Under the pieces are notes generated by a model, which did no database searches, was not told the origin of the DNA, and was given only the letters and a program-made list of their open reading frames with translations. From the NCBI GenBank assembly GCA_947085985.1, contig CAMTYL010000003.1, forward strand, positions 362,108 through 426,107: 64,000 nt of DNA, given 5' to 3'. This document shows, piece by piece, positions 12,104 to 63,518 of the stretch. A program made the position numbers and the translations under genes. How positions within the stretch are numbered: position 1 is the first letter of the stretch; the number at the start of each line of letters is the position of its first letter. The DNA is from an uncultured bacterium. GTDB taxonomy: Bacteria > Patescibacteriota > Minisyncoccia > Phycocordibacterales > Phycocordibacteraceae.

Positions 12104-12110
12104 ACAAAAA

Positions 12111-12599
12111 TTATGAAGTTTCCGAAGTAACAACTGGGGATGGTCTGTTATGCCTCTTCCACAAGTCAAATGCTACAAAGAAGAGCATGAATGTAATTAC
12201 TGCTGAGGCGATGCAGTAAATACACATTGCTTTGATAAGGAAAAACTGAATATAGAGAAATACAAGAGATGCCAGCGAGCCGATAGCTCCGAGCAGCAAG
12301 AGTCCTTTATACATGATACGCAGAGGGACAATAAGCACGGCGGCCGAGAGCACAAAGACCAGCGCATAAAACAACACACCATAAAGCGCAAGCGGAAGTC
12401 CTAGGAAGAAGGAGAATTCGCTCTTTGCTACAATATTGCACCCATCGAGCACAGCCCCTAAGTCACAGGAAAGAGCCGTTTGATTGAGCGCGCTTGCGGT
12501 CAGGTACCACGCATCAGCAAGACCCAGAAACGAGAGCACCAGGAGGAGGACTGACAATGGGGTGGCCCCCTTCGCACTCAGACGTGTTTGCATATCCAT
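12111..12599 (-). CDS. Vitamin K epoxide reductase (VKOR) family protein
   Basis: Multi-TM, CxxC (CIYC) motif and conserved loop cysteines. Confidence 0.65.
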   Translation of the reverse strand: MDMQTRLSAKGATPLSVLLLVLSFLGLADAWYLTASALNQTALSCDLGAVLDGCNIVAKSEFSFFLGLPLALYGVLFYALVFVLSAAVLIVPLRIMYKGLLLLGAIGSLASLVFLYIQFFLIKAMCIYCIASAVITFMLFFVAFDLWKRHNRPSPVVTSETS

Positions 12600-13156: not shown

Positions 13157-13654
13157 CTAGATGTAGCGCCGAAGCGAGCGAGCGAGGTCCAAAGCTCCCG
13201 AAGCGCGCTTCTTTTCCGTAGTCGGCTGGTACGCTACCTGCGCATGTTCCCTGCAGTAGGAGACTGGCCCGCCAGTGCGCCTACCACAGAACGTGAACTC
13301 GTCTGTGAGAGGGTCGCCGATGGGCCACTTGCACATGCGAGCCCTCAGCGTCATGCTCGTTGCCGACCCCAGCTCATCAGTCCGACGAGCCGGAGCAGGT
13401 ACAGTCGCAGCGCTAGGTTTGAGCGTAGTGGCTCGCACCGGCTTGGTCGCAACCGGTCGCGCTGGTCGCGGAGCCTTGAAGGCAGGGCGAGCCGGCTGTG
13501 AAGGCGCTGCGCGTCCAGAAAGCCCGAGACGATGCACCTTGCCGATAACGGCGTTGCGCGTTACCCCGCCTAGCTGCTTGGCAATCTGACTGCAGGACAG
13601 ACCGTCCAGCCAGAGCTTCTTGAGTGTCGCCACTCTTTCGTCAGTCCATCCCAT
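13157..13654 (-). CDS. GcrA-like cell-cycle regulator family protein, in a locally high-GC pocket
   Basis: N-terminal WTDERVATLKKLWLDGLSCSQIAKQLGGVTRNAVIGKVHRLGL and C-terminal CKWPIGDP...FCG...YC motif typical of GcrA. Confidence 0.6.
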   Translation of the reverse strand: MGWTDERVATLKKLWLDGLSCSQIAKQLGGVTRNAVIGKVHRLGLSGRAAPSQPARPAFKAPRPARPVATKPVRATTLKPSAATVPAPARRTDELGSATSMTLRARMCKWPIGDPLTDEFTFCGRRTGGPVSYCREHAQVAYQPTTEKKRASGALDLARSLRRYI

Positions 13655-13770
13655 ATCCCTATCCTTTCGGTAGGAGGTGAAGGGCAAAAATATCAATGCA
13701 CCCTGGCAAAAGTATAGCCCCGGTTCAAAAGCACTATCAACACCATGACACAGTGCAAAAATGTGTTCTG

Positions 13771-49091: not shown

Positions 49092-49249
49092 ACGCCCTCC
49101 TTTCTTTTAGGTTAAACAAAACCGCCTTAGGCGGGTCTGTTTAACTTATACCACAAATAAGAATTTGAAGTCCTGGAGAAGAATACTCCAGGTGTTCTGA
49201 CGTCCAATTCCCCTACCTGTAGAACCACATACTTAAGGGGTGAAAAAAT

Positions 49250-49388
49250 GGGCTGGCCATCTCGAGTTCGAACCGTATAGAACCAAGCCCTGCTTAGTCC
49301 GTTTGGTGAGTTTTCAGAAACCAAAACGACGCGTCTCGTGCACCTAGGAAAGTTACAAAAGTGACACAGGAATGAGGTTTTGGTGTCA
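49250..49388 (-). repeat. Copy A of a ~130-nt conserved 3'-UTR element with terminator hairpin (after RT2 stop)
   Basis: ~85% identical to 56290-56420; imperfect hairpin gggctgg...ccaagccc followed by U-run in minus sense. Confidence 0.6.
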
Positions 49389-49389
49389 C

Positions 49390-50385
49390 TTAAATAGTTA
49401 CACTATCCTGTAACGTTTGGACTCTGGTGGCGAGCTTTCTCGTATTTCCATGAGACATTAGGCCGAAATATGAACTCAGTCGTTCCTTGGACGTATTGTT
49501 CCTGAGCTTCGTAAACATCCTCCTTTTACTTACAGTCCTCAATACCCTGTGATCTGAGAAATGCACCCAGCCAAGAAAGTCCACGCCCGACGCAAAGGAC
49601 TTTATATATACCTTGTCCGGGTGCATGGTTAGTCCAAGATTGGTTTCTAGGAATTCATTCAACTGAGGGATGAGTGATTCAAGGTATCCTCGGTCTTCAC
49701 TGAGGAATACGAAATCATCAGCGTAGCGTATGTAGTACTTTGCCCGGAGACGGTGTTTAACGAACTGGTCGAATTCATTCATATACACGTTCGCGAAGAG
49801 TTGTGATGTGAGATTGCCAAGAGGTAGTCCCGTTTTAGGTGTAACCTCGAAGCTGGAGATTATCTCTCGTAAAAGATTCAGAATGTCTGGATCAGGAATA
49901 TGGGATTCAAGAATGGTCATCAGTTTGTTGTGCTTCATGGAGGCAAAGAACTTCCTGATATCGCACTTCAATACCCAGACCGTTCGAGTGTTATTGCGTC
50001 CTACCTTCTGAGAGAAAGCTTTGAATCTATCGAGAGCTTTATGTATGCCCTTTCCGTCACGACAGGAGTACGAGTCATGGATAAAGGTAGTATCAAAGAA
50101 TGGATATAGTTGGCGATATAGAGCGTGGTGCAGGAGCCGATCACGCACATTAGCCTTATGAATAATGCGAGGCTTGGGGTCAGAGATATTGAAACTTATA
50201 TATCCGCCATTGCGATACGACCTATTCTTTAAATCAGCGTGTAGGTCGAGGACGTGTCCCATGAGATTCGTTTCAAACTCCCGCACATCCTTTCGGGCGC
50301 GTTTTCCGTTCAAAAACTCTCGCCATGCGTCGAGTAGATTCTCCGTCGAGATGATATCTTGATATCTATGTCCGTACGCTCTCAT
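49390..50385 (-). CDS. DGR reverse transcriptase, copy 2 (paralog, ~60% aa identity to copy 1)
   Basis: YADD, LPLGNLTSQLFANVYMNEFD motifs. Confidence 0.85.
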   Translation of the reverse strand: MRAYGHRYQDIISTENLLDAWREFLNGKRARKDVREFETNLMGHVLDLHADLKNRSYRNGGYISFNISDPKPRIIHKANVRDRLLHHALYRQLYPFFDTTFIHDSYSCRDGKGIHKALDRFKAFSQKVGRNNTRTVWVLKCDIRKFFASMKHNKLMTILESHIPDPDILNLLREIISSFEVTPKTGLPLGNLTSQLFANVYMNEFDQFVKHRLRAKYYIRYADDFVFLSEDRGYLESLIPQLNEFLETNLGLTMHPDKVYIKSFASGVDFLGWVHFSDHRVLRTVSKRRMFTKLRNNTSKERLSSYFGLMSHGNTRKLATRVQTLQDSVTI

Positions 50386-50427
50386 ACCTCCAAGGCTACC
50401 CCCCCCCCGACACTTCCAGTGCTAGTG

Positions 50428-50760
50428 CAGGTCAAAAGTGTGTATATCCTTTGGAACTCTTACGCCGCAAAAATTCCTAAGACCGCTAAGTACTCTCTTG
50501 GTCTCAAGATAGATAATCTGTTTATAGATACGATTGAAGCAATTTCAATTGCCGCATTCCTACAGCGTGCCGAGAAACTTCCCTATCTCAAGAGAGCAAT
50601 TGCGCGAGTCGATACCCTGAAAGTCTTTCTACAGCTTGTATGGGAAATGAAGCTACTAGATACTAAGCAGTATGCGGAGATTTCAGAGAAGCTCTCGGAA
50701 GTAGGAAAAATGCTTGGAGGCTGGTACGGACAGGTAGTAAAGCAAAACTCCCCTGCATAG
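50428..50760 (+). CDS. avd: Avd-like four-helix-bundle protein, copy 2 (antisense to RT/TR strand); start uncertain
   Basis: ...KYSLGLKIDNLFIDTIEAI...LKVFLQLVWEMKLLDTKQYAEISEKLSEVGKMLGGW. Confidence 0.65.
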   Translation, partial: QVKSVYILWNSYAAKIPKTAKYSLGLKIDNLFIDTIEAISIAAFLQRAEKLPYLKRAIARVDTLKVFLQLVWEMKLLDTKQYAEISEKLSEVGKMLGGWYGQVVKQNSPA

Positions 50761-50781
50761 GCAGGAGAGAAATGAAGTAAG

Positions 50782-50907
50782 TTGCGAAGACGGAACACGA
50801 TGCGATTGTCGAGGTTCCACTGATTGTCGGGATTCGTCCAGTTCGTATTGAGCCACTGCTTGCCGTCCGAGTTCCGCTTGACGTTGAAGACGTTCGGGTT
50901 GCCGTCG
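50782..50907 (-). repeat. DGR template repeat TR2
   Basis: ~126 bp matching 51274-51398; ~24 mismatches, all TR-adenine (T on plus strand). Confidence 0.8.
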
Positions 50908-51257
50908 GAATCGGTTTGAGCGCCACACCATCTGTACCACCACCCCTTGAAAGTTCTTGGGGTTGAATCTTATGTGTGATCGTAATCACCAGTGTGACGC
51001 ACCAAGTATCTTCATTTTTGAAGTTTCTGCATACACCACGCTAGTTCAAATCGTAGTCGGAACTATTCTGGGTTGTATGGATACTGGGTTCGGTAGCAGA
51101 CGAGCCTATGGCTCCCGCGTATTCACCTACTGCCGTTTTTAAATATACCGTATGTAAATGTAGAAAGTCCCCGGGCGCATCACTGCGGCCGGGGACCCTT
51201 GATCGGAAGGACAAAGTATCAGAGGGACAAAGAGCCGAAGCTCTAGTCCCAAGGATC

Positions 51258-51956
51258 TTAGTCCTGAGTGACCTTGCGAAGACGGAACACGATGCGATTG
51301 CCGAGGCTCCACTGATTGCCGGGATGCGTCCAGTCCGCAATGAGCCACCGCTCGCCGCCCGAGCCCCGCCCGACGCGGAAGACGCTCGGGCGGCCGCCGG
51401 AAGCGGTAATCCGTTCCATCGCGATCCAGAGGACTTCGCCGTTGGGCTGATCCTTGTACTGGTCGCGGATGTGCGGACCCGCTTCCGCCGGAAGCAGTTC
51501 GACGACGTGGCCGTCGAGCCGTTCGGCGTTCTGCGCGCTCCACTCGGCAAGCCGGGTGGGATCGAGCAGTTCGGTCGTGGTCGGCATGCGCTCATAGCCG
51601 AAGTCGGCAGGGGTGAGGATGATCGTATCGATTTCCTCCTCCTTGTCGAGCGTCGTGAAGGCGTGGTTGTTGACCAGGCTCTTGGCGTAGTCGCTGACCG
51701 TGAAGCCAGCTTCGACGCGCTTGATGAGCGCCTTCTTGGCGACGCCGCCGATCAGGAACGTCCGCCACTTGGCGAACGCAGGCGTGACCACCAACAGGGG
51801 CGGTTCGGGCGTCTTCCCTTCGATGACGGCCTGGAGGGCCTTCATCACGTCGTCGAAGTTGGCATAGGAGCCGGACTTCACACGCCGGAACAGGTCGTTT
51901 TGGCGGACGGCGAGCTGACCCAGCTGACCGTCGGTGACAAGAGTCTTGGTATTCAT
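51258..51956 (-). CDS. DGR target (variable) protein 2 (233 aa from ATG 51956), paralog of target 1
   Basis: Shared FTVSDYAKSL../ISYLGDNFKGNF.. core and VR-encoded C-terminus ...ERWLIADWTHPGNQWSLGNRIVF. Confidence 0.7.
   Translation of the reverse strand: MNTKTLVTDGQLGQLAVRQNDLFRRVKSGSYANFDDVMKALQAVIEGKTPEPPLLVVTPAFAKWRTFLIGGVAKKALIKRVEAGFTVSDYAKSLVNNHAFTTLDKEEEIDTIILTPADFGYERMPTTTELLDPTRLAEWSAQNAERLDGHVVELLPAEAGPHIRDQYKDQPNGEVLWIAMERITASGGRPSVFRVGRGSGGERWLIADWTHPGNQWSLGNRIVFRLRKVTQD
51274..51398 (-). repeat. DGR variable repeat VR2 at the 3' end of target gene 51258-51956
   Basis: Pairs with TR2; A-specific substitution pattern. Confidence 0.8.
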
Positions 51957-52357
51957 GATATACCTCGTCGTGACAGTACTTTGCCGTTCAAGCTCACCAG
52001 TGTTCGGGTTCGCCACAGCGGAGAATGGCCTAGATAAGCCGCTCTTCGCTGTGGCGAATTCGCAAGGTTTTCAAGGAACAAGTCCGTACCACAGTATCAC
52101 AATATACGGGTAAAGTCAAGTCATTTTGACCGTTCCCGCTCAGAAGAATATCCTTATCAAATATGAGCCAAATAGTTATCGGGGTCGTCATTGCCGTTAT
52201 ATCGGCCATCATCATTTCCCTATTCCGAATTGGTGGAAATCAGAACGTAACGGTACATCACGTACAAAGCACTCATCGTGCTGGGACTCTTTGGAAACTA
52301 ATGATTGTTCTAGGCTGGGGCAGTGAAGTTCCCTCGCGAAGGAGCGGAGCAGCTTAT

Positions 52358-52645
52358 TCAGCAGATCGTACACTTTGGTGTCGAGAAGCATGACGACCTT
52401 GCAGACGCGTTCTCTGCTCTCGTCTTGGACGCGATTGCCGATCCTCCAAGAACCTTCAGGAGGAACTCTGTAAAAGCAGGATCGTCTTTTGAAACCTCTA
52501 TATCAATATCTATATCAGTAAGGTTCCGGGGTACTCCGTATGCATAACAAGCGAAGCCACCTGTTATACACCAACGCAGATTCAGTTTATCCAGAATTGG
52601 GATAATGAATGAGAGCGCTTCGTGTGCTTTTTGTTGTTCAGGAGT
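52358..52645 (-). CDS. Nucleotidyltransferase-domain protein (minimal NTase/ANT-like); C-terminal tail atypical, possibly truncated at ~52440
   Basis: LRWCITGGFACYAYGVPRNLTDIDIDIE (GG...DID motif). Confidence 0.45.
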   Translation of the reverse strand, partial: TPEQQKAHEALSFIIPILDKLNLRWCITGGFACYAYGVPRNLTDIDIDIEVSKDDPAFTEFLLKVLGGSAIASKTRAENASARSSCFSTPKCTIC

Positions 52646-52652
52646 CATAAGG

Positions 52653-53150
52653 TTAGTTGTTTTGAGCTTCCTCAAAGAAGAGAATTTCTCGTGGAAGAAT
52701 ATACTCTCCCTCCCATTGTGTCGGGGTGCTTTCACTCAATAACCGCATTACTTCTTCAATCGGGAGCCATAGAGTCTGAAAACCTCTTTCTTTTTCACTC
52801 TCAGTTAGTTGAGGTTCACCCTTATCCCCTACTAACTTTGCAAGATAGCAATATGAAATCTGCTTTTCATTATCTTCCTTCCAATATTCAGTCGTAAAGC
52901 CAAGTTCCCGTATCACCTCAATTTCGCATCCTATCTCTTCCTGACATTCTCGGTTAAGGGCAATAATCTTATCTTCATCGCCTTCTAGTCCACCACCAGG
53001 AAGCTTGTAGTAGTTATCTCTACTTACATTTAGTAAGGCGATTAATCCTTGGTCATCGGATACGATTGCTCGCGCTGCTTCTCGTATTTTGTATCCCGAA
53101 GCTTCTTCGTGAGAGACATTTCTAGGATTAATTAGGCCAAGATCTTTCAT
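52653..53150 (-). CDS. NUDIX hydrolase
   Basis: Nudix box GGGLEGDEDKIIALNRECQEEIGCEI. Confidence 0.7.
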   Translation of the reverse strand: MKDLGLINPRNVSHEEASGYKIREAARAIVSDDQGLIALLNVSRDNYYKLPGGGLEGDEDKIIALNRECQEEIGCEIEVIRELGFTTEYWKEDNEKQISYCYLAKLVGDKGEPQLTESEKERGFQTLWLPIEEVMRLLSESTPTQWEGEYILPREILFFEEAQNN

Positions 53151-53153
53151 AAC

Positions 53154-53876
53154 TTAAAACTTTTTAAACCATTTGACCGTCGCCTTATATAAAGCTTCTT
53201 GCTTCCCGTCTTCTGAGAAATTATGATGAGCGCCCTTTATTACTACAAGTTCTTTCTTCTGGGTAGTTCCCTTGAACATCTTCTGTGCGCCATCTAGGTT
53301 TCCATCTATATTGTCGTCTACAGTGATGTAAGAAATTGGTTGCTCGAATGTCTTGAGTAGATCAACAGATTTGATTGTGTGGGAATCCTTGGCCATCTGC
53401 TCACCGACGACAATGTAGTACCCGAAATCAACGAGGCGACCTTTTGGCTTCTCAATACGTTCAGGCATATCAACATGGTTCGTGGGAAGTATAGAGCCGT
53501 CCCAAGCGGCAACTGCCGTAAAGCTTCGGTCTTTGGTATGAAGAATTGATGGGAATCCGTAGCTGTGTCCTGTGATGAAGATCTTCTTCGCACCCTTAGA
53601 TTTCAAGTACTTTAGAACAGAATCAATATCCTCTCCGTGCGTCGAGAAAGTGGTCTCATCCAGTCTCCTTGAGCCCTTTTCCCAAGCATATAGATTGAAT
53701 CGTAAAGATGAGAATCCCTGCTTTTCAAAGTATCGAGCTGCGTTATATTGCAACGCTGTATTCATATCTCCTGCCAGGCCATGTACTTGCACGATGACAG
53801 GTTTACGCAAAGAACCGCGAAGAATGGCCTGAATGGTCTTCCCTCCAGTGGTCTTTATTTTGAGTACCTTTTCCAT
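53154..53876 (-). CDS. Alpha/beta-hydrolase (dienelactone-hydrolase-like)
   Basis: ITGHSYG nucleophile elbow. Confidence 0.65.
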   Translation of the reverse strand: MEKVLKIKTTGGKTIQAILRGSLRKPVIVQVHGLAGDMNTALQYNAARYFEKQGFSSLRFNLYAWEKGSRRLDETTFSTHGEDIDSVLKYLKSKGAKKIFITGHSYGFPSILHTKDRSFTAVAAWDGSILPTNHVDMPERIEKPKGRLVDFGYYIVVGEQMAKDSHTIKSVDLLKTFEQPISYITVDDNIDGNLDGAQKMFKGTTQKKELVVIKGAHHNFSEDGKQEALYKATVKWFKKF

Positions 53877-53923
53877 ATCTTAATTGTATCGCAGGCACCC
53901 GAAAAGGAAACGACGTGTTCTAA

Positions 53924-54364
53924 TCACTGAATATCCTGTTTGGGAGCATTGGGGAAATTGACCTCATCCCAGAGCGAAACGATCTGTGGCTTCAGCATCC
54001 AGTACGCCCTTCCTTCTGGAGTATTCGCAAGCACTTCTTGTAAACGCTCTGGTTTATCTCCAAACTTATTTCCGTATAGCTGATTAACCCTCTCAACATC
54101 ATCAAGAGCAACTTCAAATGCCTCTCCCACTATTTGCACTGCTTGTTTATGTTCTGAATCATGCACTACAGTGGCGGCTGCTTTTGGATTGTTTAGTATC
54201 TCCTTAGAGTGCTGTCGGGAACGTGCCGAAGTCCAATAGAGATTACCCTCCTCATCAGCGACAAAGTATACGTTACAGATCCACGGACCATTCTCGCCCA
54301 CAGTCGCCAACTGCATAAGCTTGTTAGCACTTAAAAATTCTTTGAGGATATCCTTCGGGTTCAT
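53924..54364 (-). CDS. Pyridoxamine 5'-phosphate oxidase-like FMN-binding protein (general stress protein 26 family)
   Basis: 146 aa, PNPOx-like split-barrel pattern. Confidence 0.6.
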   Translation of the reverse strand: MNPKDILKEFLSANKLMQLATVGENGPWICNVYFVADEEGNLYWTSARSRQHSKEILNNPKAAATVVHDSEHKQAVQIVGEAFEVALDDVERVNQLYGNKFGDKPERLQEVLANTPEGRAYWMLKPQIVSLWDEVNFPNAPKQDIQ

Positions 54365-54711
54365 AAGGCAACTATATCTGCAACGATCTCAGGAAAAGTT
54401 GCATCGTTAAAATGCTTTCTGTCTTCAAAGATTCGAGTCTGCGCCGAAGGTAGTTCCTTGTGGTATCGCTCAAAGTTACTGAACGGAACACTCTCATCGT
54501 CTTTGCTATGGTAGAGAATTATTTCGCCTCCTTGTCTTTCCAGATCAGAAAGATCGGTCAGGATATTGAAGTCTACATACGGATGGTCGTCCAGAGCGTT
54601 GTATGGAGCTGCCACTAAAAGCGTGGCTTTTATCTTCATTGGGTACTTCTCCTCGGAGAGATACTTTGCGAGGAATATTCCACCGTATGCCGGAAAACAC
54701 GAACCGATCAT
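54361..54711 (-). pseudogene. C-terminal fragment of a YdeN/RBBP9-type alpha/beta hydrolase (N-terminal nucleophile half missing)
   Basis: Retains ...LVAAPYN...ILYHSKDDESVPF... C-terminal half only; abuts recombinase fragment. Confidence 0.45.
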
Positions 54712-55222
54712 AAGCCAGGAGCTTTTTAGAAAGGTTCAGGAAAAACTAGACACCAACACACATGAGAGCAAGGGCGATAAAGAATTCGCTTTCACCAAGC
54801 TCATGAAGTGTGGCATGTGTAAATCAGGCGTAACGGCTGAAGAGAAATACAAAAATCTTGCTGATGGATCAATCAGAAAGTACATCTACTACGGGTGCAC
54901 CAAATTTCATGACAAGAACTGCAAAAACACTTACTTACCTGAAACTGATCTAATCTATCAGCTTACTGAAATTATTGATCGCATAGACATCAATCAGGTC
55001 GGTGTTAAGGATAAGCTTGAAAAAGAGATCGAACGCTATGTAGATTTCAGAAGTAAGGTTTTAGGAATGACCGAGGATGACAAGATACGCCAGAATCGTC
55101 TAGATATTCGAGGCTACATGAAATACATTCTTGAGAAAGGTGCGATTCAGGAAAAACGAGAATTAATGCAATCGTTTACGAGCCGACTAATACTCATTAA
55201 TAAAAGAGTTGTACTGGAGTAA
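54690..55222 (+). pseudogene. C-terminal fragment (zinc-ribbon + coiled-coil) of a large serine recombinase; catalytic resolvase domain absent
   Basis: HEPIISQELFRKVQEKL followed by CGMCKSG...YYGCTKFHDKNC zinc ribbon; no upstream resolvase domain. Confidence 0.6.
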
Positions 55223-55231
55223 GTGTGAAAT

Positions 55232-56215
55232 TTATTTAGTAAGCACCTCTACCAATGAGTCTAAATTCTCAGAAAGATATTTGATTCTCTTGTGATCGTC
55301 AAAGAGGAAATGGTCTACACGAGTATTTCCTTTCAGGTAATGCTCACTCTCTACCCAGAAACCGTGAATGGTTTTAACGAAGTAAAGCTGCAAACCTCTT
55401 TTAATCTCATCTTTCGATATCGGGTAAACGCTTGAGTACGCATCTATATATTTTCTCGCATTCTCCAAATCAGCTTTTGTAACGTCTGCGGAGAGAAGTC
55501 CGTATATCATCGACCTGAAGATTTCATATGTTCTAGGAGAATAGTTTGTCTTCTCAAGATCAAACACCCACTTCACCTTGTCCTCCTCATCAAAGAAGAC
55601 ATTATGATCAAGATAGTCACCATGTATCAAATGGTCGCAGTTTAAGCCCAAACTCTCAAAAGTCATTGTGTTTTTTAAAAGAAGCCCCTTTTTCATCTGC
55701 ACATTTTCAAGCGCAACTTTATCAAAATCACTCAGAAGGCTGACCTCTGATATTTTAACTAAGATATCTTCGATCTTCTTAAATGTCTTTTCTTCATTCT
55801 CAATCTTAAACTGATCGTCTATAGCCAGTTTTGATTCTTTGCCGAGGAGATGAATCTTTCCCAACATTTGACCAAGAGAAATAATGGACGCTTCAGTCAG
55901 ATTACCCCTTTCAAGATGCTTGCCTTCGACAAAAGGAAATAGTGCGTAATAAGCACCATCATGTTCAAAAAATGTATTTCCATCTAAAAGTGATATAGGA
56001 AGAATCACTGGAATACCACCGTCAGCAAAATACTTTTTGGAAGCATGGACTTCGGCAATTCGATTAGAGTTATCAAACCTGTACTTCTTTAAAAAGAACC
56101 TGGTCGTTCCGTCTGAAAGAAAATAATTATCGCTTAAAAAGCCTCTTGTTACCTTTTCAGAAGAGGAGACGTTGGTTCCATACAAATGATTTATTTTTAC
56201 TAAAATCTCTTCCAT
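55232..56215 (-). CDS. Phosphotransferase-family kinase (APH/choline-kinase-like)
   Basis: LIHGDYLDHNVFFDEE...WVFDLE (HGD catalytic loop, D...DLE). Confidence 0.7.
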   Translation of the reverse strand: MEEILVKINHLYGTNVSSSEKVTRGFLSDNYFLSDGTTRFFLKKYRFDNSNRIAEVHASKKYFADGGIPVILPISLLDGNTFFEHDGAYYALFPFVEGKHLERGNLTEASIISLGQMLGKIHLLGKESKLAIDDQFKIENEEKTFKKIEDILVKISEVSLLSDFDKVALENVQMKKGLLLKNTMTFESLGLNCDHLIHGDYLDHNVFFDEEDKVKWVFDLEKTNYSPRTYEIFRSMIYGLLSADVTKADLENARKYIDAYSSVYPISKDEIKRGLQLYFVKTIHGFWVESEHYLKGNTRVDHFLFDDHKRIKYLSENLDSLVEVLTK

Positions 56216-56289
56216 AAATGCAATTATAACCTTTCTGTACCTTAAGCTGTACTTACAGCAATTCGACCCGTCTAGGTCGCCGGGTACCA

Positions 56290-56420
56290 AAAACTAAGCT
56301 GCTGGCCGTCTCGAGTTAGAACCGTGGCCGGTCAAGCCCTGCTTGGTCCGTTTGATGAGTTTTCAAAATCCAAAACGACCCGTCTCGAGCGCTTTCAAAG
56401 TGACAAAAGTGACACTCCCC
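56290..56420 (-). repeat. Copy B of the ~130-nt conserved 3'-UTR element (after stop of 56420-56923 gene)
   Basis: ~85% identical to 49250-49388. Confidence 0.6.
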
Positions 56421-56923
56421 TAGGATGTTGGCCAGAGCTTCTTTTTGAAGTAAAAGTAAAGTGTAAAAAGGATTACCGAAACTCCTACTGGTGGAAACGC
56501 ATAGAGAGTAAGGGCAAATAAGTTATATCCAATCGAGAGAATTCCATTGAGGATATCTACAACCAAGGGAACGATTACAAAGAACATCGCACCCATGAGG
56601 AGTACCCAGATGATTGCCTTTGCCTCCTTGAACGATTGCCAATCCCCAAGTATCCGATACAACCCTTTGTAAAACTTAATCTTATATAGAAAGGCACCGA
56701 GGGTAACGAACGTAAGTGCGCTGTAGAAGATACGCACGAATATAGACGGTGGGTCTATCGGACTGATATCTGTCCACGTGAAGGACTTCCCCATTCCATA
56801 AACCCACAGCAAAAATGCGAGAGTACAGATAACGGAGAAGGCCGCCCCTGATAGAATCTCTTTTCTATATTTTCTCAGTATCCTTCCGTACCAGCTCATT
56901 TTAGTTTCTTCGGTAAAGCCCAA
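56420..56923 (-). CDS. Hypothetical 4-TM membrane protein
   Basis: 167 aa, four hydrophobic helices; overlaps upstream HNH gene by 23 nt (operon). Confidence 0.5.
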   Translation of the reverse strand: MGFTEETKMSWYGRILRKYRKEILSGAAFSVICTLAFLLWVYGMGKSFTWTDISPIDPPSIFVRIFYSALTFVTLGAFLYKIKFYKGLYRILGDWQSFKEAKAIIWVLLMGAMFFVIVPLVVDILNGILSIGYNLFALTLYAFPPVGVSVILFTLYFYFKKKLWPTS

Positions 56924-57998
56924 ACTTAAGTATCTTTTGAGCTGGTGTTAAAAGATGTTCTGGCGTTTGGGACAAATTAGTGATTATGCGTTCAAAAGGA
57001 TTGAACGCGTGGCCTCCACCAAAGTTAGGAAGATTCAACTCTTCCGGCATCGCACCAAGAACTATCTTATATATAGCTTGCCCACCAAAGAAGGTCATGG
57101 TCGCAACAATCTGACCATCTTCAAGTACAAAGTTTATAAAATGCATTATTACTCTCCGACCTTCATCTCGCTCTAATTTTAGAACCGGGTCTTGAGTAAT
57201 CGAGACGATTATCTCTTTCATTACACCCTCGCCAGAATGTATGAAGTTTCGAATTTTATCGAAATGCTGGCTGAATAGGATATCCCTTTTACCATCCTGG
57301 ATAGCGCAGTATGCGAAATAATTAAAAGCTATTTTTGCAAAGACACGTGCCAAATCTCTATCGACTGAACAGGAATACTCCTCCTCAATAGTAATTTTGT
57401 CGCCAGGTTCAAACTGATGACCTTTAGATGCTTTTTCTTTGTAGTTAACTCCATACTCATGTAGCAAACTAATCATACTTTTTACTTCCTCTTGAGTCTC
57501 TCCGAAGATAGCAATGTCTTTCTGATCTAGTTTCTGCATGTCTGCAGAAAGCTTTTTAAACTCGCGTCCTCCTTTAGGGACTGAGCGCAGAGCTTCAGGT
57601 CTGAAAACCCGGAAACCACCCTTGAGTCTTCGAAGCTTTATCTGATTTTTTAAGGCAGGAACTATCCTGTTCTCTTTAGGTTCAAGAAACAGGAACATCT
57701 CATTGAAAAATTCATCCCCAAATCCATTCAATCGAGTGATTTTGAACTGATTATTTCTAATAGTGACACTTCCTCTACCATCCAGGTTAAGACGCTGCCC
57801 AAAAACACCCTCGCAAGTATCCTCTGTAAAGATAGTTTCGAGTCGGGTAAAGACCTCAGAATTGCATATGTCACACACGACATCTCCTTTGATTGTCGCG
57901 TTCGAATCGAAGGTTCCAAGACAGCGCGGCATTACATGTTCACGCGAATTGAAAGTCGTCTCTGGCTCACCCTTCAAGCAATATACGCATTGGGACAT
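56901..57998 (-). CDS. HNH-endonuclease-domain protein with uncharacterised C-terminal domain
   Basis: N-terminal CVYC...REHVMPRCLG...CDICN HNH/zinc-finger pattern. Confidence 0.6.
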   Translation of the reverse strand: MSQCVYCLKGEPETTFNSREHVMPRCLGTFDSNATIKGDVVCDICNSEVFTRLETIFTEDTCEGVFGQRLNLDGRGSVTIRNNQFKITRLNGFGDEFFNEMFLFLEPKENRIVPALKNQIKLRRLKGGFRVFRPEALRSVPKGGREFKKLSADMQKLDQKDIAIFGETQEEVKSMISLLHEYGVNYKEKASKGHQFEPGDKITIEEEYSCSVDRDLARVFAKIAFNYFAYCAIQDGKRDILFSQHFDKIRNFIHSGEGVMKEIIVSITQDPVLKLERDEGRRVIMHFINFVLEDGQIVATMTFFGGQAIYKIVLGAMPEELNLPNFGGGHAFNPFERIITNLSQTPEHLLTPAQKILKFGLYRRN

Positions 57999-58003
57999 AC
58001 GGC

Positions 58004-61000
58004 TTATAGCAAGTCACGAAACTCTTCAATCAAGCCAATTGACCCGAGATAGTGAATAAGGTCATTCGTGATTTTTATTGCTTCAGCATTTTCGGTAGCC
58101 TTAACCATCTTTATTACTTCACGGTATTCTTCCTTCTTATACAGATGCTCATATGTATCCCGCTCAGCACGAGCAATGAGGTCTAAAGTCGTAGTGGTTT
58201 CAACGGGAAATTCCATTGCGTAGGACTTAAGTTCTTCTGCAATCTCATATGGAACATCGATAACACCATCAATAAGCTGTAGCGTCTTAATGGTTCGCTC
58301 CAGTGTTTCTTTTTTCGGGAATGGACTAACCTTGAACCACCAGCCAAATTCCCTGATTTCTTCGGCATCAATCCTTTCCTTAGGTAGAGCAATCCTAGCG
58401 TCCCACAGCCTTCCTAGTCGCTCTTTGACGCTTTCCTTATCCTCAAAGGACTCGAGTTGCCGGAGGATAACTCTACCTATGAAGTTTATTGCTTCTGATC
58501 TTTGTTGTGCGGGTGCGTTCCTAAAGAAATGTTCAGTAAAATCATCATGCTCGGGTTCATTTGTGTAGACAATTGCTGCATGCTGAGCAAACCGTTGATC
58601 AACGTCAGCAGCTCGATAGCCTTTCTTTTCAGCGGTTCCAAGGTAAGGGACAAAGTCCTTGTACTGTTCCTTAAGGATTGTAAAGACCTCTTTGATTACA
58701 TTATTGGCGAGATACCCTTCCCAAGCAGCCCATAAGTACTCAGGTGAATTTTTATCAAAAATTTTATGCTTGTTTTCCTCAAGCCATGCCCCATTTAGAT
58801 AGGAGAAATTCGGAACTCTCCAACCATATACCGAACGAATAGCTAAAGACGGATCCTGAGTAGAGTCTAGATGTCTGTCTAACAATTCCTGCATGGCAGG
58901 AGTCATTTTGTTTTCAATAGTCTTATCTGAGAGATTACGCGCTGTCCATAGACCGAAATTAACTACGGCATGCATAGCTTCGCCTCGTACGGTATTTATC
59001 GCTAGGGTCATTGGATCTAGTCCACCCTCACTGTCACGTTTCTCATACTCAGTGGTTGGGTCCGGGTCTTCAGCAAGATTAGTTATGATTTCCCATACCC
59101 TATCCTGAAAATTAATAGGTACTTCGCAACTATTCTTACCAAGGGCCTCTCCCAAGAAATCCGCAATCGCTAAGCGTACTGATTTCCAATCTTGTTCGTC
59201 ATTTGCTGGACTTACATCTGTCTCGTCTTTAACTACAACTCGGTATAGCAGTTCAATGACTTCTTCCCATGCAAAGCATTTATCTTTCCTTAAAGATTCT
59301 TTAAGGCCGTGGACCAGATGATAGAAAAAGATGGGGCGGATTTTCTTCTCGAAAAGCAGACCAAGCACCGCCACATACTTTTCGGGATTCTGAGCAACGA
59401 GTTCAGCAAAAATCATACCTAGACCTCCAGTCGAGTGCCTACCAAACGGGTCATCAGGTATTTTGTAGTCAACAAAATATTGCAAAGTCTCCTTCGCATC
59501 TAACCTTGCTAGGTCTTCTGAAGAAATGGGACTTTTACCCCCGTCCCACATAACCATCTCGCCGTCATGATCAGTTGGCTCACCATACTCTTTGACGATA
59601 CCTTGATACTCGTCTGCTTCCTTGACAGGGAGATTCTCCCCTATCGCCCTTAGGTAGAGTCCCTTCCAATCTGATTTAACCCGCTCGAATTCTTCTTCTG
59701 TGAGAGTGTCGTTTTTCTTAAACTCAGGACCTTCCTCAATAACCTTCAAAATCGAGTCTTTTGCTTCAGGTGACAGATTCCCAAACTGCAATCGCAGCAA
59801 AGGTAGGTATTCTCTCCGCAAATTGTATGAAATCGTGACCTTTCTCTCAGTCAGAATTTCTTCGATTTCCTTTGGAAACGGCTTGGGGTTCAATATGTAG
59901 GTCCAAAGCTCAATTCGTCTAAAAAGAGCCCACGGGTGAGATTTGAGAATCGTAACGAAATCTCTCATAACCTCATGATTATCCTTATTTTCCTCAATTA
60001 GCTTTATAACCCCATCAAGGAGCGTATCCTTTGCGTCGTCTCTACTGTGCCTAGACGACCTTAAGTTCGGACGCCATATATGAGAATACTCATAGTACGT
60101 ATCATCCGATTTATCTATCCTATCTTCTAGTTCTAACGCTTGGCGCAATTTAGATGTAAGTACTGCAAACAAACCTTTTGGATCAACCTTTGCCAATTCG
60201 ACAGTTTTCTCTTTAATAATTTCCCCAAACCTCCATTCGTCGAAATATGGCTTTGCGTCACGCCCAATGAAACGCATCGGACCCTCCTCATCGTCAGTTG
60301 CTGGTTTATCTACTTTTGTATCGAGTAGAACATTCGCTAGTTTTAAGGCTTCCTTAACCTTTCCTTCTTTTGCCAGCTTCTCCATCAACTCAGCAACTTT
60401 GTCAGGCAAAAGTAGATTATACGAATTTTGTATCCACTTATTCTTACAAATTAGGTCTACGTACTTCACTGCGACATCTGCAGGTGACTTAAGCGCCATT
60501 GATACAAAATCGTCCAATACAGACTGATTGTCGGAATTTAAGTTCTTAACAATGTCGAAGACAACTTCTGGCTTTTGCTCAGCCACCTTCAGTAAGTACT
60601 GAGATTCAGGCCAACCAACGAAACGAATATACCCTCCTTCCCTGAGGGGTTCTTGGGGCGCATTAAAAGCACCGACATCCCTCAGAGGCTCAAGCCAGTT
60701 CTGATTATCGCATCTCTCAAAAAAGTACTTTCTATGCTGTGGCTGAACAATTACTTTTGCGAGGATACTTAAATGCTCAGGAGTCGGATCATTAACAACT
60801 AAAAGCTTATCGATTTCAGCAACGCCATCAAAAAATGGAGTCTCGACCAAGACTTGGTATAGGAGGTCCTCGTACCTCCAAACCATCAATTCAAACTCCC
60901 TTTCAAGAATTCCAGCAATTTGTTTATTCTTGAGATCATCGTGCTTTGAACCTTTATGAAAGAAGGTCTGCACCTCAATCCAATCTTCAACAAACTTTCT

Positions 61001-61384
61001 TCTTAAGTATTCAGGCAGTGCGCTTCTATCTGCGTGCCTGCTGAGTAAATCTTGAAGCATTTGCTTCTGGCCGCCGGTATTCGCTACCTGAACTGACTCA
61101 TCTTTGGCTAGCAATGGGATGCCTTTGAAGTAACGTGGCAAGATTGCAGTCAGCTCACGAGCAGAATGTGACACTTGGCCAATGCGGTCGGGATTTCTTT
61201 TGTTATTAAAAGTGATTACTAATCCCTCATAAATCCCCGCCAACTTCTTGCACAGCTCTGGAGACTCTGAATCTAGTCTTAATAAAGCGTCGCGGATTTT
61301 CTTTTGCCTCACTTCGGCGGACGACAAAACATCTTCAGTATCAACTGAGTTTTCCAAGCCCTCGTCTTTAAATTGGTCCGCCAC
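58004..61384 (-). CDS. Large uncharacterised protein (1126 aa), predominantly alpha-helical, no NTPase motifs detected by eye
   Basis: Long AT-rich ORF with uniform coding signal; no Walker A/B, no known domain recognised. Confidence 0.55.
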   Translation of the reverse strand: MADQFKDEGLENSVDTEDVLSSAEVRQKKIRDALLRLDSESPELCKKLAGIYEGLVITFNNKRNPDRIGQVSHSARELTAILPRYFKGIPLLAKDESVQVANTGGQKQMLQDLLSRHADRSALPEYLRRKFVEDWIEVQTFFHKGSKHDDLKNKQIAGILEREFELMVWRYEDLLYQVLVETPFFDGVAEIDKLLVVNDPTPEHLSILAKVIVQPQHRKYFFERCDNQNWLEPLRDVGAFNAPQEPLREGGYIRFVGWPESQYLLKVAEQKPEVVFDIVKNLNSDNQSVLDDFVSMALKSPADVAVKYVDLICKNKWIQNSYNLLLPDKVAELMEKLAKEGKVKEALKLANVLLDTKVDKPATDDEEGPMRFIGRDAKPYFDEWRFGEIIKEKTVELAKVDPKGLFAVLTSKLRQALELEDRIDKSDDTYYEYSHIWRPNLRSSRHSRDDAKDTLLDGVIKLIEENKDNHEVMRDFVTILKSHPWALFRRIELWTYILNPKPFPKEIEEILTERKVTISYNLRREYLPLLRLQFGNLSPEAKDSILKVIEEGPEFKKNDTLTEEEFERVKSDWKGLYLRAIGENLPVKEADEYQGIVKEYGEPTDHDGEMVMWDGGKSPISSEDLARLDAKETLQYFVDYKIPDDPFGRHSTGGLGMIFAELVAQNPEKYVAVLGLLFEKKIRPIFFYHLVHGLKESLRKDKCFAWEEVIELLYRVVVKDETDVSPANDEQDWKSVRLAIADFLGEALGKNSCEVPINFQDRVWEIITNLAEDPDPTTEYEKRDSEGGLDPMTLAINTVRGEAMHAVVNFGLWTARNLSDKTIENKMTPAMQELLDRHLDSTQDPSLAIRSVYGWRVPNFSYLNGAWLEENKHKIFDKNSPEYLWAAWEGYLANNVIKEVFTILKEQYKDFVPYLGTAEKKGYRAADVDQRFAQHAAIVYTNEPEHDDFTEHFFRNAPAQQRSEAINFIGRVILRQLESFEDKESVKERLGRLWDARIALPKERIDAEEIREFGWWFKVSPFPKKETLERTIKTLQLIDGVIDVPYEIAEELKSYAMEFPVETTTTLDLIARAERDTYEHLYKKEEYREVIKMVKATENAEAIKITNDLIHYLGSIGLIEEFRDLL

Positions 61385-61436
61385 AGACCAATTTTATCAT
61401 TTTTGGCCTGATTTATAGCCCTGTGGGGTACGCGTC

Positions 61437-61703
61437 TTAACGTACACTCTTGTGCCTATGGTCAGACGGTCGGCCAATGAAGTAGCTGTAGTCCTTCATA
61501 AAAAGCTGGCACAAAATAATCAGGTCATGAATCTTGAGGCTGCGCTCCCCACTCTCAATCAAGGAGATAGCTGTCGGCGATTCGTATTCTAGAAGGCTCG
61601 CAAGGTTTGTTTGCGAGTAGCCCGCCTCCACGCGGCAGTCCCTAATCTTCTGTCCGATTTCCCTATCCAGGTCTTTGAAGGTCGCTTTCTTTGTCATATC
61701 CAC
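61437..61703 (-). CDS. XRE-family helix-turn-helix transcriptional regulator
   Basis: IRDCRVEAGYSQTNLASLLEYESPTAISLIESGERSLKIHDL HTH_3 pattern. Confidence 0.7.
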   Translation of the reverse strand: MDMTKKATFKDLDREIGQKIRDCRVEAGYSQTNLASLLEYESPTAISLIESGERSLKIHDLIILCQLFMKDYSYFIGRPSDHRHKSVR

Positions 61704-61810
61704 ACTATATCTCTATTGACCAAGTTTACCAATTTGATAAACTTGTAACGGAGTTCCCGGAGGAGGTAGCAAAAAAGCATGACGTGCGATTAATCATTAT
61801 CTTTTTTGCT

Positions 61811-63088
61811 ATGTCCCATAAACTAACTTGGACTACGGTCCAGAAGCGGGTGGACGATCTCGTCCCCCAGGAGGTAAATCCTCGCATTATTACCGACAAG
61901 CAGATGTCGGACCTGAAGCGCAGTCTCAAGAAGTTCAATCTTGTTGAGGTTCCCGCAATCGATATGAACGGCAAGATACTTGCCGGGCATCAGCGTATCA
62001 AAGCATTGCAGCTCCTCGGCCGTGGAAACGAACTTATCGATGTTCGTATTCCAAACCGCAAGCTCACGAAGCAGGAGTCAGACGAATACCTCCTTGCTTC
62101 CAACAAGCTTGGCGGAGACTGGGACTTTGAACTTCTGAAGTCCTTCGATCTCGGAACGCTTGAGTTCGCAGGGTTCGATGATGTCGAGCTCGCGGAAATC
62201 TGGGACGAGGATAAGTCTGTCGAAGATGACAGCTTCGATGTAGAAAAGGAACTTAAGAAGATTAAGGAGCCGGACACAAAGCTTGGTGACCTTATCACGC
62301 TCGGGAACCACCGTATCCTCTGTGGCGACTCAACCAAGCCCGAGAATCTGAAGCGTCTCCTCGGCACCGAGAAGGCGGTAATGATTTATTCGGACCCCGT
62401 CTACAACATTGATATCGATTACAACGGCGGTATCAGCGGCAAGCAGAAGTACGGCGGTGATGTGAATGACACCCGTACGTTCGAGGAATACCGTACATTC
62501 CTTAAGAGGAGTCTTGAGGCGGCACTCGCCGTATCTGCTACAGACACTCATGTCTTCTACTGGTGCGACCAGGTGTACATCGGCGTACTTCAGGAGCTAT
62601 ACCGTAGCCTCGGCATTGCGAACAAGCGAGTGTGCCTTTGGCTTAAGAACAGCCAGAATCCTGTTCCCTCTGTAGCGTTCAATAAGGCGTATGAGCCTGT
62701 GGTGTACGGCGTTCGCGGGAAGCCGTATCTGGCTGAAGCGGTTACGACTCTGAACGAAGTACTGAATAAGGAAATGGGTACGGGGAATGAACTTCTAGAG
62801 CAGGTAGAGGATGTCTGGATGGCGAAGCGTCTTTCCGGCAAGGATTATGAGCACGCGACCTCGAAGCCGCCCCAGCTTCACGAGAAGGCTATCAAGCGGT
62901 GTACGAAGCCAGGAGACATAATCCTCGACAGCTTCCTTGGTTCAGGTAGTACCCTCATTGCAGGAGAAGCACTCGGACGGAAGGTGTATGGTTGCGAACT
63001 TGAGCCTGCATTCTGCGACCTCATGATTCGCCGGTATGAGAAGCTGACCGGCGCAAAGGCAAAGGTAAAGAGGTATGAAGAAGACTAA
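61811..63088 (+). CDS. ParB-like nuclease domain fused to DNA N6-adenine/N4-cytosine methyltransferase (beta-class, orphan)
   Basis: ParB-N region ...VEVPAIDMNGKILAGHQRIKALQLL; MTase motif IV SDPVYN (D/SPPY) and motif I ILDSFLGSGST. Confidence 0.75.
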   Translation: MSHKLTWTTVQKRVDDLVPQEVNPRIITDKQMSDLKRSLKKFNLVEVPAIDMNGKILAGHQRIKALQLLGRGNELIDVRIPNRKLTKQESDEYLLASNKLGGDWDFELLKSFDLGTLEFAGFDDVELAEIWDEDKSVEDDSFDVEKELKKIKEPDTKLGDLITLGNHRILCGDSTKPENLKRLLGTEKAVMIYSDPVYNIDIDYNGGISGKQKYGGDVNDTRTFEEYRTFLKRSLEAALAVSATDTHVFYWCDQVYIGVLQELYRSLGIANKRVCLWLKNSQNPVPSVAFNKAYEPVVYGVRGKPYLAEAVTTLNEVLNKEMGTGNELLEQVEDVWMAKRLSGKDYEHATSKPPQLHEKAIKRCTKPGDIILDSFLGSGSTLIAGEALGRKVYGCELEPAFCDLMIRRYEKLTGAKAKVKRYEED

Positions 63089-63518
63089 GAAGGTTGTAGA
63101 GAAATTCTTAGCTGAACTTGAGCGCACCCCTATCGTTGGAGCTGCGTGTGAAAAGACAGGACTCTCACGCAATACGGTATATCGCTGGAGGAAGGAGGAT
63201 CGTGAATTCGCCGCTCACTTTGATTACTCACTCTACCAAGGAATCGCGGTTGTGAGTGACGTGGCTGAAAGCAACGTACTCAACGGTATCAAGAACAAGG
63301 ACGCTGGCTACACCAAGTTCTGGTTGAGTAGCAGGCACCCGGCATATCGAAAGGTCTTCTTTAATCGAGAAGAAAAGCGAAAGAACCCTTTGGCTGATCC
63401 TGCGGAGCAAGCTCGCGTAAAGAAGGAGGTAAAGAGAATCTTTAGGGAGTGGGATGCATATGGACCCAAGGGCCCTCCACCTGATGAGCCAGAGGACAAG
63501 AAGCGTAAGAAGTCCTAA
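63075..63518 (+). CDS. Phage terminase small subunit-like HTH protein
   Basis: N-terminal ...AACEKTGLSRNTVYRWRKEDREF... typical TerS HTH; basic C-terminus. Confidence 0.5.
   Translation: MKKTKKVVEKFLAELERTPIVGAACEKTGLSRNTVYRWRKEDREFAAHFDYSLYQGIAVVSDVAESNVLNGIKNKDAGYTKFWLSSRHPAYRKVFFNREEKRKNPLADPAEQARVKKEVKRIFREWDAYGPKGPPPDEPEDKKRKKS

Follow-up and report, generated by a model that had tools for sequence, protein, structure and literature searches.

A plausible Dsr1/Avs7-type sensor with a predicted nuclease-like N-terminal domain, followed by a probably independent HNH cassette, in a satellite-like island of a Patescibacteria genome

Defence-associated sirtuin 1 (Dsr1; Gao et al. 2020; Garb et al. 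2022, bioRxiv 10.1101/2021.12.14.472415) has a sensor that is homologous to the sensor of Avs7, and SeAvs7 and EcDsr1 are both triggered by the phage major capsid protein (PMC12803255, a preprint of January 2026; PMC13581612, the Nature version of July 2026). Proteins that have the same sensor without a STAND NTPase carry varied N-terminal effectors, including NADases, nucleases, kinases, and, in Streptomyces, a HEPN-like RNase (PMC12803255, PMC13581612). Effector-associated (adaptor) domains are also listed among the N-termini of this sensor family (PMC13581612). Here, a locus from an uncultured member of the Patescibacteriota is compared with these systems. It is contained in a stretch of 64,000 nt (GCA_947085985.1, contig CAMTYL010000003.1, positions 362,108 to 426,107), which is denoted as the window and to which all coordinates refer unless another locus is named. 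Four genes on the minus strand encode an XRE-family helix-turn-helix (HTH) regulator, a large protein of 1126 aa, an HNH protein, and a membrane protein with four transmembrane (TM) segments. With a probability of roughly 0.58, the locus is a mosaic of two parts, an XRE-regulated single-protein sensor-effector of the Dsr1/Avs7 superfamily, and an independent cassette in a hotspot that comprises the HNH gene and probably the TM gene.

The large gene (58004-61384, minus strand) was classified with the PADLOC Dsr1 model PDLC04166, which matched its product with an E value of 1.4e-48. The match extends from residue 198 to residue 1106 (58067-60793, minus strand) and from position 303 to 1206 of the 1227 model positions, and it takes in all of Dsr1 but its SIR2-bearing part. 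An archaeal relative (from locus L024) matched the same model with an E value of 9.3e-58, and a relative from locus L025 also matched. This result does not agree with the initial annotation, which had found no likeness of the large protein to known systems. The AlphaFold 2 model, based on an alignment of 22 sequences, was an all-helical solenoid with a pLDDT of 84. In a Foldseek search of the PDB, this model resembled the complex of Avs4 with a phage portal protein most, and HEAT/ARM solenoids ranked next. Searches with the sequence of the large protein in Pfam, NCBIfam, PHROGs, and the PDB did not yield any match, and neither did a search of the PDB with the family profile. The Pfam scan also revealed no NTPase or P-loop family, and the all-alpha model is in line with this, so that the lack of an NTPase, which had been noted by eye, was confirmed. 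No SIR2 family was found in scans with Pfam, NCBIfam, and PADLOC, and therefore, depletion of NAD+ would not be expected. Taken together, the large protein carries, by homology, a Dsr1/Avs7-type alpha-solenoid sensor and has no SIR2 domain, and the locus is plausibly a defence-related locus of a known kind. The kinship with Avs7 is derived from the match to the Dsr1 model and the published homology of Dsr1 and Avs7.

The architecture of the large protein resembles that of Dsr1 in that a small N-terminal domain and a long alpha-solenoid are present in one polypeptide, and about 900 C-terminal residues are homologous to the Dsr1 sensor. In contrast to Dsr1, the SIR2 domain is missing, residues 1-200 fold into a helical domain that is not related to it, the host has a Patescibacteria-type genome, and the gene resides in an island with genes for a TerS-like protein and a ParB-type DNA methyltransferase (MTase). 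The N-terminal domain (residues 1-200; 60785-61384, minus strand) is predicted to be a nuclease-like effector. Its residues from about 17 to 200 form a helical bundle in the AlphaFold 2 model. In the alignment of 22 family members R76 and E77 are invariant, and Y52, G54, P65, H73, and L78 are nearly so. Among 72 diverse full-length representatives, which were drawn from an exhaustive profile search, H73 is conserved in 96%, R76 in 100%, E77 in 89%, W135 in 93%, and a second histidine (position 147 or 148) in 94% of the sequences. The large protein had initially been described as a scaffold without recognizable motif, but a conserved, catalytic-looking domain is found where Dsr1 has its SIR2 domain.

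The only Pfam family that was matched by several of the N-terminal domains is PF18165 (pP_pnuc_1, predicted pPIWI-associating nuclease), with 5 of 13 members matching and a best E value of 4.7e-5. The matches cover the helix pair that bears the Y..G and HxxRE motifs. A literature search did not reveal any mention of pP_pnuc_1 or PF18165. The Foldseek comparison of the N-terminal domain with the PDB gave no significant match, and its HEPN-like affinity comes from a fold search. In the actinobacterial relatives of loci L025-27, the domain has a gene of its own, with an overlap of 4 nt with the sensor gene, while it is fused to the sensor in L041, and stand-alone proteins of 215-270 aa with this domain form a family of their own. 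The split gene and the stand-alone family argue that the N-terminal domain is a discrete functional module. It is classified here as HEPN-like or pP_pnuc_1-like, distantly related to PF18165, and a predicted nuclease, the chemistry of which we infer.

The large protein thus resembles the Avs7/Dsr1-sensor proteins without STAND in three respects, the Dsr1-type sensor, the lack of an NTPase, and an N-terminal domain other than SIR2, for which a fold search indicated HEPN-like character. These proteins include the Streptomyces protein with the HEPN-like RNase (PMC13581612). The N-terminal domain of the window protein is also found in its remote actinobacterial relatives. In contrast to these proteins, the motif of the window family is HxxRE plus a second histidine and not the canonical Rx4-6H. 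A difference to pP_pnuc_1 is that the N-terminal domain has a Dsr1-type sensor as its genomic partner, where a PIWI protein would be expected for pP_pnuc_1.

The distribution of the family was determined with two approaches. A word-based search retrieved about 35 full-length homologues of the large protein, nearly all of them from metagenome-assembled genomes of Patescibacteria. The exhaustive profile search yielded 7,355 cluster representatives at an E value of up to 1e-3 and 3,499 at up to 1e-30. The family exists in two forms, proteins of about 1,110-1,190 aa with the N-terminal domain and proteins of about 940-985 aa without it, and members are also found in actinobacterial chromosomes and in operons that resemble restriction-modification (R-M) operons. 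Members of the large-protein family or of the HNH family were not detected in pattern-based scans of the IMG/VR viral contigs. A total of 50 loci were collected, of which 17 are distinct and contain a full-length relative (16 from Patescibacteria and one from an archaeon).

The genes downstream of the large gene differ widely among the 17 distinct loci and form about nine unrelated classes. A protein of about 597 aa is the partner in six distinct loci. Further classes are a protein of about 527 aa; a protein of 197-201 aa, which is followed by a 120-aa TM protein in L004/L022 and is represented by a 201-aa gene in L011; a 341-aa protein together with a DUF4238 protein; pairs of 376-aa and 355-aa proteins and of 162-aa and 392-aa proteins; and, in the archaeal locus, a ResIII/endonuclease protein. 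The HNH_5 class is confined to the window and L029. The two HNH proteins are 60% identical, and each gene is followed by a gene for a small TM protein, which are mutually unrelated. The partner classes, and likewise the three small TM proteins, have no common motif or detectable homology. In a neighbour-joining tree of the large proteins, the 597-aa partner is spread paraphyletically, and it was probably ancestral in its clade. The large protein of L011 is 87% identical to that of the window, yet its partner is entirely different. In the actinobacterial and metagenomic relatives (L025-27, L038-42), no gene is conserved behind the large gene.

In some of the collected loci, the sensor gene is translationally coupled to its neighbours in R-M-like operons. 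In L001/L030 (1-12167), the operon has genes for a SNF2 helicase, an N6_N4 MTase, a ResIII/TnsA-N nuclease, the sensor, and the 597-aa protein. In the archaeal L024 (7980-15693), an MTase, the sensor, and a ResIII/RE endonuclease are encoded with 4-nt overlaps. By-eye inspection of the 527-aa and 392-aa partners revealed D...E-x-K strings, which no tool supported, and a PD-(D/E)xK identity is not claimed.

These comparisons do not support the view that the four genes of the window are a unit. The initial annotation had proposed a novel four-gene system and had named a gene set that never co-occurs elsewhere as the observation that would speak against it. This is largely what was found, as the complete set was seen only in identical copies of the window locus; among the 17 distinct loci, the XRE gene is present in two, the HNH gene in two, and the TM gene in one, the window locus itself. 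The core protein belongs to a kind described in 2026, and the proposal of a novel architecture of four genes is not upheld. Three components are uncharacterised, namely the HNH_5 family including its C-terminal domain, the TM protein, which is an orphan, and a repeated element of about 120 nt, which is described below, but they are not together a new system. The proposed relation to defence as such gained support from the Dsr1/Avs7-type sensor and from an island that holds defence-type cargo in the relatives.

The DNA comparison with L011 showed where the conserved part of the locus ends. The two loci have 80% identity throughout the MTase gene, the HTH gene, and the large gene. The homology ends at the stop codon of the large gene and resumes at an element of about 95-120 nt. 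In the window, a copy of this element (about 120 nt; 56295-56415, minus strand) follows the TM gene directly, and a terminator-like hairpin (56378-56390) is part of it. The element consists of TGTCAC-N4-TGTCAC, followed by GCTCGAGACG..GTCGTTTTGG, and then GGTTCTAACTCGAGACGGCCAGC. A second copy (49247-49371, minus strand) with 82% identity is present at the GC boundary of the island, right after the reverse transcriptase gene of a retroelement. L011 has two copies (12039-12148 and 13581-13686), of which one follows the 201-aa gene and the other a gene for an AAA_21 ATPase. The element was also found in L016 (7092-7106 and 7550-7661), L021 (17228-17352), L017 (15280-15400), and L029 (9300-9422). 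In L011 and L016, one inserted gene parts the 5' half of the element, TGTCACTTTTGTCAC, from the remainder, which points to an insertion hotspot inside the element. The element was found only in the clade with large proteins that are at least 54% identical to that of the window, and a pattern-based scan did not detect its 3' core on IMG/VR viral contigs.

Three possible identities of the element were considered and discarded. It did not match any Rfam family, and RNAalifold predicted two short hairpins with essentially no covariation, which did not support an RNA gene. No tRNA was found, and it is thus not regarded as a tRNA fragment. An attC site was not supported, because RNAalifold revealed neither a conserved long hairpin nor covariation. 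The element is therefore treated here as a DNA-level boundary or insertion site with a small terminator-like hairpin.

The HNH gene (56901-57998, minus strand) encodes a protein of 365 aa. Residues 4-55 (57834-57989) matched HNH_5 (PF14279) with 27.8 bits, compared to a gathering score of 27.5. C4, C7, E20, H21, C42, C45, and N46 are invariant or nearly so in 28 homologues. The HNH signature that had been recognized by eye was thus upheld by Pfam. The C-terminal domain comprises about 300 aa and is strongly conserved. This C-terminal part matched phrog_35254, a family of unknown function, with an E value of 1.7e-14. PADLOC gave no match for the protein, and neither the protein nor its profile matched PDB sequences. 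With other HNH_5 nucleases, the protein shares the beta-beta-alpha-Me zinc-finger core (CxxC...EH...CxxCN), and it differs from them by the C-terminal domain, for which the only family assignment is the unknown-function PHROG. The family comprises at least 55 homologous clusters. The NCBI gene call for the protein (P0039, 325 aa) starts 40 codons late and loses the first CxxC and the catalytic histidine; the form of 365 aa is likely the true product, because the homologues conserve the longer N-terminus.

Homologues of the HNH protein that are 52-58% identical to it are encoded in five contexts without a large protein (L044-L050). In L044, the gene lies 407 nt from its upstream neighbour, is not coupled to it, and is followed by an unrelated gene for a 432-aa protein. 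It is situated behind a DUF5677 gene in L045, which has the TerS/ParB-MTase backbone, and behind an Abi_2 gene in L046. In L047/48, the HNH gene is accompanied by a gene for a 339-aa protein, and a type I MTase and a serine recombinase are encoded next to them. The HNH gene of L049/50 is monocistronic, with an EcoRI R-M pair on one side and a serine recombinase on the other. A TM partner gene is not present beside the HNH gene in any of the five contexts. Its occurrence without the sensor indicates that the HNH gene behaves as an autonomous, mobile gene of defence islands. As a side observation, the Abi_2 frame of L046 (5057-5947) contains several in-frame stop codons when translated with table 11, which suggests a recoded genome, e.g., with UGA as a sense codon as in some Patescibacteria.

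The TM gene (56420-56923, minus strand) encodes a protein of 167 aa and overlaps the HNH gene by 23 nt. Four hydrophobic segments were predicted, in agreement with the earlier description of the last gene as a four-TM protein. No match above threshold was obtained in Pfam, NCBIfam, or PHROG, and PADLOC yielded only a 2TM effector model with an E value of 0.033. Among all fetched loci, homologues were found only in identical copies of the window locus. Unrelated small TM proteins hold the same position in L029 and in L004/L022.

The XRE gene (61437-61703, minus strand, 88 aa; metagenome gene callers prefer a start that yields 86 aa) was assigned correctly in the initial annotation, as it matched HTH_3/HTH_31 of Pfam with an E value of 1.2e-7; the HTH_VI and control-protein models of PADLOC also matched. 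Among the 17 distinct loci, the large gene is preceded by an XRE gene in the window and in L011/L012 alone; the product of the latter gene is 82% identical. Two relatives of the large protein have a fused N-terminal domain of a similar kind, HTH_3 in P0161 and a LexA-type winged HTH in P0251, and these fusions support a functional link of the upstream XRE gene to the large gene.

All four open reading frames were recovered at the coordinates that had been given before. In the order XRE, large, HNH, and TM gene, the spacings are 52, 5, and -23 nt, and thus, the latter two agree with the earlier values, while the first had been given as 53 nt. A match to a sigma-70-like promoter (61704-61732, minus strand) directly precedes the HTH gene. 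It is based on the consensus alone and is the sole one on the minus strand outside of coding interiors; 4 sites were found in the region versus 9.6 expected by chance, so that it constitutes weak evidence. As the only promoter match lies before the HTH gene and the only terminator-like hairpin behind the TM gene, co-transcription of the four genes is plausible from the sequence. The longest open reading frames of the HTH gene and the divergent ParB-MTase gene overlap by 13 nt at their 5' ends (61691-61703). With the later starts preferred by metagenome gene callers (86 aa and 425 aa, respectively), the two genes would be separated by a shared control region of about 110 nt, which has promoter-like matches on both strands.

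A mechanism can be proposed on this basis. The alpha-solenoid of about 900 aa would bind a conserved structural protein of a phage, most likely the major capsid protein, by analogy to EcDsr1 and SeAvs7. The helical domain of about 180 aa with the motif HxxRE ... A/S-H-R/H (an invariant arginine, two conserved histidines, and a glutamate) would stand in for the SIR2 NADase. Binding of the phage protein would activate this domain, which might then cleave RNA, or possibly DNA, and the infection would be stopped. The XRE protein probably represses or tunes the transcription of the unit that comprises its own gene and the large gene. A mobile cassette, made up of the HNH gene and probably the TM gene, would have landed between the stop codon of the sensor gene and the element of about 120 nt. 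This cassette is likely co-transcribed with the XRE and large-gene unit and would be functionally autonomous. The break in DNA homology, the genes inside the element, the varied partners, and the HNH homologues without a sensor are the reasons to regard it as separate.

Several observations weigh against this mosaic of a sensor-effector and an independent cassette. Sensing of the capsid is extrapolated from proteins that match the large protein at the profile level only. The canonical HEPN spacing (R67-x5-H73) is present in the window protein and in most members from Patescibacteria; R67 varies across the 72 diverse representatives, and the canonical Rx4-6H motif is not kept. The N-terminal domain of the window protein scored only 13 bits (E value 0.079) on pP_pnuc_1, which has a gathering score of 26.3. 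The best relative (P0144) reached 26.0 bits, and all matches were below the threshold. The relative P0150 has an extra HD-CE domain ahead of the N-terminal domain, and therefore, the latter could be a regulatory or linker module instead of an effector. In 17 of 17 distinct loci, a co-oriented gene was found within -32 to +55 nt of the stop codon of the large gene. In the neighbour-joining tree, HNH plus TM and the 197-201-aa class were each gained in two non-sister lineages of large proteins. In addition, the large gene and the gene for the 597-aa protein are kept as a pair in two different upstream contexts, the TerS/ParB-MTase island and the SNF2/MTase/ResIII operon. The tight partner in all loci, the repeated gain of partners, and the 597-aa pair in two contexts also fit a model in which the partners act in trans. 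In such a model, the large protein would only sense, its N-terminal domain would be an adaptor or activator, the downstream gene, which is the HNH gene in the window and a gene for a 597-aa, 527-aa, 197-aa, or other protein elsewhere, would encode an exchangeable trans-effector, and the TM protein would act as an anchor or as an additional effector. The operon would then be a true system of several genes, with a slot in which the effector can be swapped. The lack of a promoter-like site between the large gene and the HNH gene, the hairpin solely after the TM gene, and the small TM proteins that follow the partner in three classes are in line with it, as are the HD-CE fusion and the adaptor domains reported for the sensor family (PMC13581612). 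However, the close relative in L011 has a wholly different partner, the partner classes do not share a motif or domain, and HNH homologues of the same divergence occur without the large protein. The lack of a conserved downstream gene in L025-27 and L038-42 and the invariant residues of the N-terminal domain, which are of a catalytic type and not purely structural, also argue against it. The short gaps themselves are weak evidence, because Patescibacterial genomes are compact and co-directional. We therefore regard effectors in trans as the main alternative, but as rather unlikely; if they exist, the locus would be a natural case of effector swapping behind a fixed sensor.

A related model starts from the similarity to integron cassettes and to hotspots of the type found in phage-inducible chromosomal islands (PICIs), where promoter-less, co-oriented, variable genes are likewise found behind a fixed gene and bounded by a repeated element, here of about 120 nt. 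The sensor gene of Patescibacteria would then form the constant first gene of a platform similar to an integron. Effector cassettes without promoters, i.e., those for HNH, the 597-aa and 527-aa proteins, the 197-aa protein, and small TM proteins, would enter by site-specific insertion at the TGTCAC-N4-TGTCAC element directly behind it, and their products would be activated by the sensor in trans. If true, one capsid sensor could be re-armed with different killing modules that are co-transcribed with it. In contrast to integrons, an IntI-type tyrosine recombinase is absent, the recombinases of the island are large serine recombinases, and the element has neither an attC-like inverted-repeat structure nor covariation, and we consider this platform doubtful. 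An R-M-like function, with the N6_N4 MTase shielding the host DNA and the large protein and the downstream nuclease restricting unmodified DNA, could account for the N6_N4 MTase gene that immediately precedes the large gene in at least 12 of 17 loci. This MTase gene has a divergent orientation in the islands, whereas in L024 and L001/L030 it is co-directional with the large gene and tightly coupled to it. However, the ParB-MTase of the island travels with TerS, TerL, and a recombinase, as in phage genomes, and it is also present in the island of L045, where the large gene is absent. No MTase is found near the actinobacterial relatives, and those Dsr1-type sensors that have been characterised sense proteins, which together make restriction very unlikely. 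The resemblance to PICI-type satellites, namely an island with TerS and a recombinase and without structural genes, would be compatible with a capsid-binding solenoid that serves the life cycle of the island itself, e.g., by hijacking or redirecting the capsids of a helper phage. The fixed place of the large gene by TerS/ParB-MTase, the minimal size of the island with its serine recombinase, and the binding of the major capsid protein, expected by homology to the sensor class, would fit such a role. However, thousands of family members are found outside of such islands, the L045 island does without the large gene, and the catalytic-type N-terminal domain suits an effector better than a scaffold; this role thus appears extremely improbable.

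Under the favoured mosaic reading, a helical protein that looked unclassifiable becomes a testable member of the Dsr1/Avs7 superfamily of capsid sensors. The sensor with a non-SIR2 N-terminal domain (HxxRE ... His) is widespread, with thousands of cluster representatives, and the family reaches the reduced genomes of Patescibacteria, in which defence systems have been little studied. If the HNH and TM genes are cargo of a hotspot, caution is needed when such islands are mined for "operons", since linkage has to be told apart from accidental adjacency.

The genomic surroundings agree with the initial description of a mobile region with low GC content. The GC content is 0.42-0.44 over 56-61 kb, compared to about 0.52 for most of the window, and the neighbours that had been named were all verified by Pfam or PHROG matches. 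They are the ParB-N6_N4 DNA methyltransferase (61691-63088, plus strand; Pfam), a TerS-like HTH protein (63075-63518, plus strand; PHROG terS, E value 1.8e-9), and the C-terminal remnant of a serine recombinase (54566-55222; Pfam/PHROG scans). The first two genes are divergent from the defence genes and belong to the backbone of the island. The ParB-MTase and TerS pair flanks the large gene in divergent orientation in the window and in L004, L006, L011, L021, L022, and L031. An MTase without a detected TerS is found beside the large gene in L016, where a contig end cuts the locus, and in L017. Complete islands also encode a large serine recombinase and TerL, and they are bordered directly by host genes. 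Judged by its gene content, the island is a small, satellite-like or prophage-remnant element. The islands of relatives hold defence-type cargo, including R-M genes, Abi_2, HEPN_AbiU2, and AAA_21. The L045 island has the backbone with different cargo and without the large gene, and therefore, the large gene is cargo and not a part of the backbone.

The region between the two copies of the element has further cargo. Genes for an APH-family kinase, the serine-recombinase remnant, a PNPOx-like protein, an alpha/beta hydrolase, and a NUDIX hydrolase are present at 52358-56290. They might be what is left of another island that decayed and was fused to the first. The same island also contains a complete diversity-generating retroelement (49390-52016). 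It consists of the reverse transcriptase gene (49390-50385, minus strand), an Avd-like gene (50359-50760, plus strand), the template repeat (50782-50915), the variable repeat (51274-51407), and the target gene (51258-52016, minus strand). The two repeats have a length of 134 nt and are 84% identical, and the aligned mismatches are at adenines of the template, which is the hallmark of mutagenesis by these retroelements. The variable repeat is situated at the 3' end of the target gene, which encodes 252 aa, within a patch with a GC content of 59%.

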